A stretch of 32,000 nucleotides of DNA from an uncultured Actinomycetes bacterium (GCA_963843975.1 CAWJMG010000003.1:2190001-2222000), one strand, 5' to 3'; shown: positions 23,330 to 28,963, counted from the stretch's first letter. Made by a program: numbers and translations. Notes: generated by a model not told the origin, from the letters alone.

Positions 23330-23701
23330 TCAGGCGTCGCGCTTGTCTGCCTCGGGTGCGCTCGCTTCCCAGCCGGCCAGGCGGTCGCGCTCGTGGGTGA
23401 GCTCGGTGAGGGTCGTGCCGGCGTACTCGTGCTCGGGCGACCAGTGCAGCGCGTCGAACGGGCACACCTCGATGCAGATGCCGCAGTAGAGGCAGAGCGA
23501 GAAGTCGATCGCGAACCGGTCGAGCACGTTCTCGGTGCGCGGGCGGCGGTGCACCTCGTCCGCGGGGAGCGTCTCGGTGTGACCCTCGATGTGGATGCAC
23601 CAGTCGGGGCACTCACGGGCGCAGAGCATGCAGACCGTGCAGTTCTCCTCGACGAGGGAGATCACCCCGCGGCTGCGAGCAGGGACGACGTGGTCGCTCA
23701 T
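23330..23701 (-). CDS. NuoI-like 2x[4Fe-4S] ferredoxin-type subunit
   Basis: 123 aa from the ATG at 23701: [93 protein letters not shown]. It has two CxxCxxCxxxCP motifs with NuoI-type spacing. The start overlaps the nuoC-like stop (ATGA). Confidence 0.85.
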
Positions 23702-24240
23702 GCCTCGCTCCCCCAACCCTCGGGGACGCCGGGCGGCAGGGTGCGGCGACGCGCGCGGCCGGTGTCGCCGGCCGGGTCCTTCTCGCCGGGCCACGGCCGC
23801 GCGACGCGGGCGGCCAGCACGAAGTCCTTGCGCAGGGGGAAGGCGCCGAGCGACGGCTGGGTGCGCAGCGAAGAGAGGTCGGGGTGCCCGACGAACACGA
23901 CGCCGAACATCTCGTGCACCGACCGCTCGTGCCAGGCCCAGCCGCGGTGGACGCCGACGGCGCTCGCGACCTCGAGCCGGTCGGCCGGCACCCGGGTGCG
24001 CAGCAGCACGTGGTCGGCCGCGTCGGGCGTCGCGACGTGCGCGACCACCGCGATCCCGAGGTCGAGCTCGTCGTAGGCGGTGAGGTAGTCGGCGTACGTC
24101 GCCGCCGCAGCGGCGGCCGCGGCGAGCGCCGGCACCCACGCCGACGGCGAGACGTCGACCGTCACCGGGCCGAATCCCGCCGTCACGGCCAGCACCTGCT
24201 CGCCGAGCGCGGCGCGGACCGCCTCGACCAGCGCGCTCAT
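23698..24240 (-). CDS. NuoC-like (complex I 30-kDa subunit family) protein
   Basis: 180 aa: [39 protein letters not shown]...[40 protein letters not shown]. This is the NuoC signature (ERE..DMFGI.F.GHPDL...FPLRKD). The start overlaps the nuoB-like stop. Confidence 0.85.
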
Positions 24241-24728
24241 CGGGCCACCCCCGGGAGGCGGCGCAGGCCGTCGGCGAGCGCCTCGGGGCGCGGCGGGCAG
24301 CCGGGCACGTAGACGTCGACGGGCACGACCTGGTCGACGCCCTTGGTCACGGAGTACGAGTCCCAGTAGGGCCCGCCCGAGCTGGCGCAGGCGCCGAACG
24401 ACACCACGGGCGTGCCCGGAGGAAGCGACGCGTGCAGCTCGCGCAGGGCCGGGGCGAGGACGTCGGTGCAGGTGCCGGAGACCACCAGGACGTCGACGGC
24501 GTCAGCCTCGGGATCGGCGTCCGCGATCAGTCCGGCCGCACGGGCCTCGGGGCGGCGCAGCGCCGCAGCCACGAGCTCGACGGAGCAGCAGGCGAGGCCC
24601 GCGCCCGCGACGTGCAGGGCGACGACCCGGTCGTCGGCGCCGTCGAGGTCGACGGTCAACCGCAGCGGCGCTCCGGGGCCGGGCCGGCCGAGACCGGGGA
24701 GGCCGAGAAGGACATCGCCGTCCGCCAC
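24237..24728 (-). CDS. NuoB-like (complex I 20-kDa / hydrogenase small-subunit family) protein
   Basis: 163 aa, GTG at 24728 with an AGGGAGG RBS: ...[23 protein letters not shown]...[72 protein letters not shown]. All four N2-cluster cysteines (CC, C, C) are present. Confidence 0.88.
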
Positions 24729-26055: not shown

Positions 26056-27912
26056 GTGGGCAAGCAAGTGGTCCAGCTCAACCGCGTCATCATCCGCTTC
26101 GCGGGTGACTCCGGCGACGGGATGCAGCTGGCCGGCGACCAGTTCACGTCACGCACCGCGTCGTTCGGCAACGACCTGGCGACGCTGCCGGACTTCCCCG
26201 CCGAGATCCGCGCACCAGCCGGCACCATCCCGGGTGTCTCGGCCTTCCAGCTGCACTTCGCCGACCACGACATCACGACCGCGGGCGACACCCCCAACGT
26301 GCTGGTCGCGATGAATCCCGCCGCGCTCAAGGCCAACATCAAGGACATCCCGCGCGGCGCGGACATCATCGTGAACACCGACGAGTTCACGACCCGCAAC
26401 CTCACCAAGGTCGGCTACGACGCGAACCCGCTCGAGGACGGCTCGCTCGAGTCGTACGCCGTGCACCCGATCCCGCTCACCTCGATGACCGTCGAGGCGC
26501 TCAAGGGCATCGACGTCAGCAAGAAGGAGGCCGAGCGCGCGAAGAACATGTTCGCGCTCGGCCTGCTCTCGTGGCTGTACCACCGGCCCACCGAGGGCAC
26601 GCTGACGTTCCTCAAGCAGAAGTTCGCCAAGAAGCCCGACATCCTCGCGGCCAACATCACGGCCTTCGAGGCCGGCTGGTCGTTCGGCGAGACCACCGAG
26701 GACTTCGCGGTCCAGTACGAGATCCAGCCCGCGCCGATGGCGACGGGCCGCTACCGCAACATGTCGGGCAACCTCGCGCTCGCGTACGGCCTCATCGCGG
26801 CCTCGCAGCGCGCCGAGATCCCTCTGTTCCTCGGGTCGTACCCGATCACCCCGGCGTCGGACATCCTCCACGAGCTGAGCAAGCACAAGCGGTTCGGCGT
26901 CATGACGTTCCAGGCCGAGGACGAGATCGCGGGCATCGGTGCCGCCCTCGGTGCGTCGTACGGCGGCATGCTCGGAGTCACCACGACCTCGGGCCCCGGC
27001 GTCGCGCTGAAGTCCGAGACGATCGGCCTCGCGGTGTCGCTCGAGCTCCCGCTCGTGATCGTCGACGTCCAGCGCGGCGGCCCCTCGACCGGCCTGCCGA
27101 CCAAGACCGAGCAGGCCGACCTGCTGCAGGCGATGTTCGGCCGCAACGGCGAGGCGCCCGTCCCGATCGTCGCGCCGCGCTCCCCCGGCGACTGCTTCGA
27201 CGCCGCCGTCGAGGCCGTGCGCATCGCCACCACGTACCGCACGCCGGTGTTCCTGCTCTCGGACGGCTACGTCGCCAACGGCTCCGAGCCGTGGAAGATC
27301 CCGGACGTCGACTCGCTGCCCGACCTCCGGGTGCAGTTCGCGAGCGAGCACAACCACACCAACGCCGACGGCTCGACCGAGTTCTGGCCGTACCTCCGCG
27401 ACCCCGAGACGCTCGCCCGCCCGTGGGCCGTGCCCGGCACCAAGGGCCTCGAGCACCGCATCGGCGGCATCGAGAAGGCCGACGGCATCGGCAACATCTC
27501 GTACGACGCCGACAACCACGACCGCATGGTGCGGCTGCGCCAGGCCAAGATCGACGGCATCACGGTGCCCGACCTCGAGGTCGAGGACCCGGACGGCGAC
27601 GCGCGCGTGCTCATGCTCGGGTGGGGTTCGACGTACGGGCCGATCAACGCCGCGTGCCAGATCTCGCGTCGCGCCGGCGCCTCGGTGGCCCAGGCCCACC
27701 TGCGCCACCTCAACCCGTTCCCGGCCAACACCGCAGAGGTGCTGCGCCGCTACGACAAGGTCGTCATCCCCGAGATGAACCTCGGTCAGCTCGCGCTGCT
27801 GATCCGCGGCAAGTACCTCGTGGACGCGATCGCCTACAACCAGGTGCGAGGCCTCCCGTTCAAGGCCGAGGAGCTCGCCGGAGTCATCAAGGACGTGGTC
27901 GCCAGTGTCTGA
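26056..27912 (+). CDS. korA: 2-oxoglutarate:ferredoxin (acceptor) oxidoreductase subunit alpha
   Basis: 618 aa, GTG at 26056 with an AAGGCGAGGA RBS: (M)GKQVVQLNRVIIRFAGDSGDGMQLAGDQFTSRTASFGNDLATLPDFPAEIRAPAGTIPGVSAFQLHF...GSYPITPASDILHELSKHK...TTTSGPGVALKSE...DVQRGGPSTGLPTKTEQADLL. Matches the actinobacterial KorA (gamma-alpha fusion) type. Confidence 0.93.
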   Translation: MGKQVVQLNRVIIRFAGDSGDGMQLAGDQFTSRTASFGNDLATLPDFPAEIRAPAGTIPGVSAFQLHFADHDITTAGDTPNVLVAMNPAALKANIKDIPRGADIIVNTDEFTTRNLTKVGYDANPLEDGSLESYAVHPIPLTSMTVEALKGIDVSKKEAERAKNMFALGLLSWLYHRPTEGTLTFLKQKFAKKPDILAANITAFEAGWSFGETTEDFAVQYEIQPAPMATGRYRNMSGNLALAYGLIAASQRAEIPLFLGSYPITPASDILHELSKHKRFGVMTFQAEDEIAGIGAALGASYGGMLGVTTTSGPGVALKSETIGLAVSLELPLVIVDVQRGGPSTGLPTKTEQADLLQAMFGRNGEAPVPIVAPRSPGDCFDAAVEAVRIATTYRTPVFLLSDGYVANGSEPWKIPDVDSLPDLRVQFASEHNHTNADGSTEFWPYLRDPETLARPWAVPGTKGLEHRIGGIEKADGIGNISYDADNHDRMVRLRQAKIDGITVPDLEVEDPDGDARVLMLGWGSTYGPINAACQISRRAGASVAQAHLRHLNPFPANTAEVLRRYDKVVIPEMNLGQLALLIRGKYLVDAIAYNQVRGLPFKAEELAGVIKDVVASV

Positions 27913-28963
27913 GTCCGTCGATCTGGGCTTCCCGTCGCTGAAGCTCGTCCCGAAGACGGACGAGAAGCAGTCGGCGAAGGACTTCAAGACCGACCAGGAG
28001 GTGCGCTGGTGCCCCGGGTGCGGCGACTACGCGATCCTGGCCGGCGTCCAGAGCTTCATGCCCGAGCTCGGCCTCGCCAAGGAGAACATCGTCTGGATCT
28101 CCGGCATCGGCTGCTCGAGCCGCTTCCCGTACTACATGAACACGTTCGGGATGCACTCGATCCACGGCCGTGCCCCGGCCATCGCCTCGGGCCTCGCGAT
28201 CACCCGCCCGGACCTCTCGGTCTGGGTCGTCACCGGTGACGGCGACGCGCTCTCCATCGGCGGCAACCACCTGATCCACGCGCTGCGCCGCAACGTGAAC
28301 CTCAAGATCCTGCTGTTCAACAACCGGATCTACGGCCTCACCAAGGGCCAGTACTCGCCCACGTCCGAGGTCGGCAAGGTCACGAAGTCGACGCCCATGG
28401 GCTCGCTGGACCACCCCTTCAACCCGGTCTCGCTCGCGCTCGGCGCCGAGGCGTCGTTCGTCGCGCGCACGATCGACTCCGACCGCAAGCACCTCACCGA
28501 GACGCTGCGCCAGGCGGCGCTTCACGACGGCACGGCGCTGGTCGAGATCTACCAGAACTGCAACATCTTCAACGACGGTGCGTGGGACCCGCTGAAGGAC
28601 TCCGACCACCGCGACCAGCTCACGCTGCGCCTCGAGCACGGCAAGCCGATCACGCTGGTCGACGGCACCCGCGGCGTGATCCGCAACGCCGACGGCGGTC
28701 TCGAGATCGCCGACGTCGCCGAGGTGGGGCTCGACGCGATCGTCGTGCACGACTCCCACCGTCCCGACCCGTCGACGGCGTTCGCGCTGTCGCGGCTCTC
28801 GGACTCGGTCACGCTCGCCAACACGCCGATCGGCGTGTTCCGCGACGTGCCGCGCCCGTCGTACGACTCCACGTTCCAGGCCCAGCTCGCCACGGCCAAG
28901 GCCGCGGGCAACGCCGACCTGGGTGCGCTGCTCGCCGGCAGCGACACGTGGGAGATCGCCTGA
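27905..28963 (+). CDS. korB: 2-oxoglutarate:ferredoxin (acceptor) oxidoreductase subunit beta (TPP-binding)
   Basis: 352 aa, GTG at 27905 overlapping the korA stop by 8 nt: ...DQEVRWCPGCGDYAILAGVQSFMPELGL...ISGIGCSSRFPYYMNTFGMHSIHGRAPAIASGL...VVTGDGDALSIGGNHLIHALRRNVNLKILLFNNRIYGLTKGQYSPTS. Confidence 0.93.
   Translation: MSESVDLGFPSLKLVPKTDEKQSAKDFKTDQEVRWCPGCGDYAILAGVQSFMPELGLAKENIVWISGIGCSSRFPYYMNTFGMHSIHGRAPAIASGLAITRPDLSVWVVTGDGDALSIGGNHLIHALRRNVNLKILLFNNRIYGLTKGQYSPTSEVGKVTKSTPMGSLDHPFNPVSLALGAEASFVARTIDSDRKHLTETLRQAALHDGTALVEIYQNCNIFNDGAWDPLKDSDHRDQLTLRLEHGKPITLVDGTRGVIRNADGGLEIADVAEVGLDAIVVHDSHRPDPSTAFALSRLSDSVTLANTPIGVFRDVPRPSYDSTFQAQLATAKAAGNADLGALLAGSDTWEIA

Follow-up and report, generated by a model that had tools for sequence, protein, structure and literature searches.

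To what does the actinobacterial 2-oxoacid:acceptor oxidoreductase KorAB pass its electrons? Its physiological acceptor is still unidentified, a question open since 2009 (PMC2773412), and it is raised anew by a 32,000-nucleotide stretch of high-G+C DNA of the actinobacterial type from an uncultured Actinomycetes bacterium (GCA_963843975.1 CAWJMG010000003.1:2190001-2222000; henceforth the window), in which korAB is encoded divergently from three genes for NuoB-, NuoC- and NuoI-like proteins (the trio; Table 1). The initial annotation of this DNA, noting that KorAB needs an external low-potential acceptor, proposed the trio as a candidate dedicated one. We found that the trio consists of nuoB2, nuoC2 and nuoI2, peripheral-arm genes that survive here from nuo2, the second complex-I-like operon of actinobacteria, after the loss of all its membrane-subunit genes. 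The initial annotation had missed this descent, as well as a NuoD partner (NuoD2, hereafter D2, the other nuo2 products being shortened likewise) encoded elsewhere in the genome and a conventional 7Fe ferredoxin that the genome also encodes. The overall reading that we favor, and regard as rather probable, is that this nuo2 remnant specifies a soluble B2-C2-D2-I2 iron-sulfur (Fe-S) module under purifying selection, for which KorAB is a plausible but not a dedicated electron donor.

The descent of the trio is apparent from synteny maps of 40 loci, 20 from the same order as the window and 20 that represent other families of the class. In 13/20 of the latter loci yajQ and korAB enclose nuoA2-B2-C2-H2-I2-J2-K2-L2-M2-N2, with no genes for the E, F and G subunits; in 7/20 of them, and throughout the window's order, only B2-C2-I2 is left in this slot. 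NuoH2 occupies the gap between C2 and I2 in 13/13 full loci and is missing from 7/7 reduced ones, and the identity of the trio products to their full-operon counterparts amounts to 65-74% for I2 and 41-52% for C2. In the genome from which the window comes, a canonical nuoA-N operon lies about 15 kb outside the window, and two nuoB, two nuoC and two nuoD genes are accompanied by one nuoH, the canonical copy. A search for a nuo2 membrane arm proper to this genome (A2, H2, J2-N2) returned that single NuoH match and no membrane-subunit gene at the locus, where the trio is followed by no nuoD, nuoH or antiporter-like gene. As a side observation, the full operons of family f11 (L089 and L090) carry about 2-4 kb of extra DNA between nuoH2 and nuoI2.

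Other classes of the phylum have a complete, unbroken nuo2 that includes D2 (A2-B2-C2-D2-H2-I2-...-N2) and often lies beside the canonical operon; within the class, D2 is encoded away from the rest of nuo2. Only D2 has moved away in this manner in Actinomycetes. At several loci from the other classes (L103, L104, L108, L109, L114 and L115) the canonical 14-gene nuo and the 11-gene nuo2 operons stand directly in tandem, an arrangement that points to nuo2 having originated, or being kept, next to nuo. The full form has been reported from Streptomyces as a nuo2 operon with a separate nuoD2 and no N module, its function being stated as unclear (PMC8388888, PMC3765725, PMC9239103), and no functional study came up when we searched the literature for nuo2 function, a korAB-nuo2 link or actinobacterial hydrogenase-related 'Ehr' complexes. 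In Streptomyces coelicolor (SCO4599-SCO4608), B2, C2 and I2 take the same syntenic place by korAB (SCO4594/4595), likewise without NuoE/F/G, and D2 is encoded on its own, in the same company as in the window genome (genes for a bPH-domain protein, a PF02636 methyltransferase and a DUF2520 protein). Unlike this operon, the window form lacks all seven membrane-subunit genes (A2, H2, J2-N2), its type of B2 has lost several motifs (see below) and its four subunits evolve several-fold faster.

The gene positions given in the initial annotation were all borne out by open reading frame (ORF) and profile checks. The three trio genes are translationally coupled, and yajQ converges on them from downstream. 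The nuoB2 product scores above the cut-offs of PF01058 (74 bits; cut-off 27) and NF005012 (123.6 bits; cut-off 116) and below that of TIGR01957 (118.7 bits; cut-off 142.7), and it has all four Cys ligands of cluster N2 intact (CCxxE, GxCxxxGG, GCPP). In the nuoB2 gene of a different trio-type locus (L096 of family f54; G113:C2, ~348.8-349.2 kb), the GLACC region is replaced by five tandem DSGGT repeats. NuoC2 matches PF00329 with 75.7 bits (cut-off 22.5) but stays under the cut-off of TIGR01961 (59.2 bits against 122.45), and its C-terminal family motif, PLRKDF.LAARV..WPG...RRR..PPGV..W, recurs in full-operon C2. The best family for the nuoI2 product is NuoI (TIGR01971, 70.1 bits, under the cut-off of 113 bits), and both of its CxxCxxCxxxCP motifs are intact. 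A 269-aa 'NuoI' ORF reaching 24139 was rejected as a high-G+C artifact overlapping nuoC2, the true start of nuoI2 being the ATG at 23701. The korB product falls under the cut-off of TIGR02177 (246.6 bits against 261.9).

The missing NuoD-type partner is encoded on another contig, and its distribution ties it closely to the trio. We profiled 201 genomes sampled evenly from the class, in which kin are not independent so that all counts are descriptive only; seven unpublished genomes of this sample (G045, G053, G062, G068, G070, G074 and G081), and eight of the phylum sample, enter the tallies only. With a profile of C2 relatives, C2 was called at E<1e-26, against values of about 1e-17 to 1e-23 for canonical NuoC. 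This yielded C2 in 123/201 genomes and H2 in 74/201, all of which have C2; 49 genomes, about 40% of the nuo2-bearing ones sampled, are thus of the membrane-less type with C2 and without H2. C2 and D2 co-occur almost perfectly (both in 116 genomes, C2 only in 7, D2 only in 7, neither in 71), and the exceptions are mostly incomplete assemblies.

The window genome's D2, which is 90% identical to its homolog in Longivirga aurantiaca, displays the hallmarks of nuo2-type D2: Trp takes the place of Tyr87, the HRGAEK motif has its Arg, and the complex-I-specific insertion is absent. The His of HPSxHG is retained in all aligned D2 proteins, those from intact 11-gene operons included. The Trp (in RHDW or RIDW) stands where Tyr87 ligates the quinone in Nqo4 of Thermus thermophilus, and D2 also lacks a segment of about 41 residues in which the genome's canonical NuoD carries ...ALIHHFK.... 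Compared with the large subunits of the Group 4 [NiFe] hydrogenases and their relatives (Mbh, Mbs, FHL), D2 aligns collinearly with MbsL and MbhL along its entire length; on the other hand, it has no NiFe Cys pairs (N-terminus HPSSHG, C-terminus ...CPYVVGDVDA, no CxxC), is closer to NuoD (E 5e-60) than to MbsL (3e-45) and has no partner of the NuoH/MbhM type. A hydrogenase reading of D2 was rejected for want of the NiFe Cys, and D2 has neither of the standard catalytic sites. The complexes that Marreiros et al. in 2013 reportedly called 'Ehr' are said to be kin of the Group 4 type.

The distribution of D2 is tracked by a gene for a methyltransferase of the NDUFAF7/MidA type (PF02636), which lies no more than a few kilobases from D2 across the class and directly after nuoN2 in two genomes from other classes. 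It is present in 114/201 genomes, 111 of which have D2 (of 123 with D2) and three of which, all incomplete, have C2 only, and it occurs in 0/71 genomes lacking both. A search of PDB sequences with this methyltransferase gave no match. NDUFAF7 dimethylates Arg85 of human NDUFS2 (...GLLHR(85)GTEK), about 7 Å from cluster N2, where T. thermophilus has Thr (PMC3829151). In D2 the equivalent stretch reads ...GFLHRGAEK, with an Arg that is at least 90% conserved; this genome's canonical NuoD reads LHTGIEK, with Thr in that place. The tracking of D2 by the PF02636 enzyme, taken with the mitochondrial-type Arg, predicts that this Arg of D2, and not canonical NuoD, is the methylation substrate, and the link supports D2 lying against the N2-type cluster in B2. 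Arg84, next to Tyr87, was rejected as the target, which is the Arg of LHRGTEK and corresponds to Thr64 of T. thermophilus (PMC3829151).

B2 and I2 have changed as well. Trio-type B2 lacks three elements common to canonical NuoB and full-operon B2, namely the SLW context (...SLW..FGLACC), the D-F/L-x-R-F/L-G...PR(Q/H)AD loop and the C-terminal extension, and I2 lacks the QYPD N-terminus. The SLW context and the loop are found in all 13 full-operon B2 proteins and give way to unrelated variable sequence in the window and most trio-type B2; a recent reduction of the trio type (L086) still has both. Judging from established complex I structures, the three B2 elements presumably face NuoH/NuoA and line the quinone site and tunnel. 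Their loss fits a module that is no longer docked on a membrane arm, and we therefore tentatively prefer a soluble B2-C2-D2-I2 complex to a hybrid built on the canonical arm. Taken together, D2 and trio-type B2 would form a quinone site that is not a standard one. We posit that B2, C2, D2 and I2 assemble into a membrane-free protein resembling the Q module, which would work as a soluble or peripheral electron-transfer unit; of its three [4Fe-4S] clusters, I2 would contribute two and B2 one of the N2 type. Electrons may enter at I2 from a low-potential donor, for which KorAB, acting directly or through the genome's 7Fe ferredoxin, is a candidate.

A Q module without the NADH-input module is also seen in the 11-subunit complex I-like enzymes (cyanobacterial and chloroplast NDH-1, Fpo and the Desulfitobacterium type). 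These enzymes keep the quinone-ligating Tyr and the membrane arm, unlike the window D2, with its Trp and no HHF segment, and unlike the window genome, which has no dedicated membrane arm. Such relatives of complex I that lack the N module take ferredoxin-type donors (PMC4453560, PMC3144371), and, as in them, the NuoI-type subunit of the proposed module would be the exposed point of electron entry.

The reduction appears to have recurred. In FastTree trees of concatenated B2-C2-I2 and of D2, for which the supports are SH-like only, branches are short for the full-operon form and long for the trio type in each of the four subunits, with rates several-fold faster in the trio type. Full and reduced states both occur inside families f17, f19, f27, f33 and f42; the trio forms of f42 group with the full form of the same family (support 0.84), and the trio form of f58 groups with the full form of f60 (support 0.93). 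The remaining trio types fall into one long-branch cluster that also attracts the outgroup, and a single clean origin of the trio type was rejected, as this behavior suggests long-branch attraction. We conclude that the membrane arm was lost in at least three lineages, and for two of these independence has good support. The genes that were left behind are, judging from their sequences, not pseudogenes: against the closest relative dN/dS is 0.14 for B2, 0.26 for C2 and 0.16 for I2 (korA, 0.08), and in I2, the best-conserved part of the trio, the eight cluster Cys, together with a ninth family-specific Cys, are kept in 38/38 trio and full-operon sequences. The four Cys ligands of B2 are kept in 21/25 trio loci.

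Some observations pull the other way. The CC pair of B2 is lost in the other 4/25 trio loci (f4 g11, f54, f57; L035, L036, L094, L096), so that cluster N2 appears dispensable in some trio-type lineages; 12 genomes with D2, of which 10 are trio-type, gave no match to the PF02636 methyltransferase; the long trio branches may partly reflect relaxed constraint; and the possible long-branch attraction leaves the number of independent losses uncertain. The faster rates, the lost CC motif and the absent methyltransferase, along with an insertion sequence (IS) that sits 51 bp upstream of the nuoB2 start codon in this strain, are what a decaying relic without function would show. We consider such a relic very improbable, in view of the reading frames that stay intact across an order and many families, the low dN/dS of the closest pair and invariant Cys of I2, the retention of the trio in genome-streamlined lineages and the co-retention of D2 at a separate locus. 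Neither do we think it likely that the canonical NuoA, H, J-N arm takes up B2, C2, D2 and I2 in place of its own Q and N modules to give a ferredoxin-driven, NADH-independent hybrid complex I. A host arm is at hand, with a canonical nuo operon in the window genome and in 47/49 trio-type genomes (the remaining two are 75-78% complete), a hybrid machine has been suggested for Streptomyces (PMC9239103) and the use of ferredoxin-type donors by 11-subunit relatives (PMC4453560) lends it a precedent; however, the elements missing from trio-type B2 (SLW, RFG...PRQAD and the C-terminal extension) are ones that would face NuoH and NuoA, and the loss of QYPD from I2 and of Tyr87 and the HHF segment from D2 also speaks against such a hybrid.

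With the soluble module as the preferred reading, the standing of KorAB remains to be weighed. The divergent pairing with korAB that the initial annotation had noticed proved to be ancient and widely kept across the class (15/20 same-order loci and 17/20 loci of other class families, far above chance), and the divergent spacers, of about 60-360 bp, persisted through at least three separate operon reductions. This pairing and the missing name of the KorAB acceptor in the literature make it conceivable that the trio replaces the missing 2x[4Fe-4S] delta subunit as a dedicated acceptor, and I2, like KorD/PorD, is a small 2x[4Fe-4S] protein encoded by the kor genes' side, in principle able to pass on electrons from the cluster of the beta subunit. 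I2 indeed has weaker matches to PorD/KorD (TIGR02179, 40.4 bits) and the OGOR delta subunit (NF042987, 36 bits), but these lie under the cut-offs of 60.05 and 125 bits, NuoI is the best match, and nuoI2 is on the strand opposite to korAB, not co-transcribed with it as a delta-subunit gene would be, and co-inherited with paralogs of NuoB, C and D. The trio moreover descends from a complex-I-like operon that in other classes lies far from korAB. Co-occurrence profiling, proposed in the initial annotation as a check, shows that neither gene set depends on the other. KorA, present in 169/201 class genomes, is commoner with C2 (115/123) than without it (54/78), an association with an odds ratio of 6.4 in which kin are not independent; yet the two are decoupled both ways (both in 115 genomes, KorA without C2 or D2 in 54, C2 without KorA in 8, neither in 24). 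Five of the eight genomes with C2 and no KorA are at least 90% complete, one of the eight being a single contig. Within the order sample, korA was not found in eight genomes, seven of which keep the trio, and the trio was not found in four well-assembled genomes and two drafts that keep korA. We therefore judge a dedicated acceptor to be quite unlikely: the proposal of the trio as a destination of KorAB electrons stays plausible through the conserved pairing, and its 'dedicated' part falls, given the decoupling, the single origin of the juxtaposition and the syntenic surroundings.

That the adjacency is inherited synteny without functional meaning, with the module serving another redox partner or role, has by our estimate close to an even chance. 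Of ten genomes from other classes, eight have nuo2 either 0.3-2 Mb away from korA or on a different contig, and the remaining two gave no korA match, which indicates that the juxtaposition arose once. Furthermore, yajQ, rarD, a polyprenyl synthase gene and canonical nuo are equally conserved in position, so that with the whole neighborhood syntenic the adjacency alone is weak evidence, possibly inherited and not selected. The decoupling points the same way, as do two streamlined genomes of 1.5-1.7 Mb among the seven above, which keep the trio and D2 without a detectable korA. What counts against mere inheritance is the survival of the closely spaced divergent pair through the reductions and the greater frequency of KorA alongside C2, subject to the same relatedness of the genomes. 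The 7Fe-type ferredoxin (127 aa; G000:C3:1996764-1997147, minus strand; ...CVEECPVDCI...CVDCGACEPVCP...), encoded about 193 kb upstream of the window, further loosens the link to KorAB; 7Fe ferredoxins are the usual acceptor type of two-subunit 2-oxoacid:ferredoxin oxidoreductases. All told, electron flow from KorAB to the module, whether direct or via ferredoxin, is a possible but rather doubtful route. The fullest form of the idea, in which nuo2 was repeatedly turned into a free B2-C2-D2-I2 module that is matured by the NDUFAF7-type arginine methyltransferase and passes electrons of KorAB, an aerotolerant 2-oxoglutarate oxidoreductase, to a soluble acceptor and not to quinone, is one we would offer as an improbable conjecture.

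The shared spacer of the window strain is interrupted by an IS481-family element, recognized by its DDE transposase with a leucine zipper, 33-nt terminal inverted repeats that are 91% complementary and the 6-bp target duplication CCTAGG, which contains CTAG (24774-24779 and 25861-25866). In three close relatives the site is unoccupied and CCTAGG stands there once, from which it follows that the original nuoB2-korA spacer was 240 bp, in agreement with the length of about 240 bp between the two GTG starts that the initial annotation had obtained by leaving out the IS and one duplicate copy. Other copies of the element lie at G000:C3:1885496-1886575 and G000:C1:957433-958514 (99.9% and 83% identical, respectively), the former indicating recent activity in this genome. 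The insertion cuts off the native upstream DNA of the trio and shifts the rest of the shared spacer 1.1 kb off, so that co-regulation of the trio and korAB is probably disturbed in this strain. The motif AGCCTAG (TAGGCT in reverse complement) is found again in 10/22 spacers from distant genomes, about 45-55 nt ahead of the start of B2 or A2; TAGGCT fits the actinobacterial -10 consensus TANNNT and is likely the -10 element of the trio promoter. A scan for promoters of the E. coli type found none. The CTAG core of the recurrent motif coincides with the IS481 target, and the element inserted exactly there (24772-24779). In the korA-proximal remainder, the palindrome GGTCCC-N6-GGGACC, kept in the closest relatives only, may be an operator.

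Table 1. Features of the trio-korAB locus and of its partner genes. Plain coordinates count from the first nucleotide of the window; G000 denotes the genome to which the window belongs, followed by the contig.
Feature	Position	Strand	Description
nuoI2	23330-23701	-	NuoI-like 2x[4Fe-4S] subunit, 123 aa; start overlaps nuoC2 stop (ATGA)
nuoC2	23698-24240	-	NuoC-like subunit, 180 aa
nuoB2	24237-24728	-	NuoB-like [4Fe-4S] (N2-type) subunit, 163 aa, diverged trio type
Candidate -10 hexamer TAGGCT of the trio promoter	24772-24777	-	Inferred from recurrent motif
IS481-family insertion sequence	24780-25860	+	Transposase gene 24886-25848; rve, rve_3 and LZ_Tnp_IS481 domains
korA-proximal remainder of the original divergent spacer	25867-26055	.	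Palindrome GGTCCC (25912-25917) / GGGACC (25924-25929)
korA	26056-27912	+	2-oxoacid:acceptor oxidoreductase alpha subunit, 618 aa; TIGR03710, 659 bits; POR_N, POR and PFOR_II domains
korB	27905-28963	+	Beta subunit, TPP-binding, 352 aa; PF02775, 108 bits (cut-off 21.9)
NDUFAF7/MidA-type methyltransferase (PF02636)	G000:C1:827365-828402 (L006:6365-7402)		2.4 kb upstream of nuoD2
nuoD2	G000:C1:830791-831966		D2; solo gene on another contig, 391 aa

What is new here is a membrane-less variant of the known but uncharacterized nuo2, together with the co-occurrence of D2, the changes at the D2 and B2 sites and the link to a methyltransferase. The locus also illustrates how gene adjacency by itself overstates the connection to KorAB, an association that arose once and is dispensable both ways. 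A naturally membrane-free Q module, if true, would be a simple, purifiable system that is under selection in dozens of lineages and stands promoter-to-promoter with korAB. It would provide a handle on whether KorAB or ferredoxin feeds nuo2-type Fe-S subunits and on the acceptor of actinobacterial KorAB, the mycobacterial type included, as well as on the role of a NuoD whose quinone-binding Tyr is replaced by Trp and on the methylation of NuoD-type Arg by bacterial homologs of NDUFAF7.

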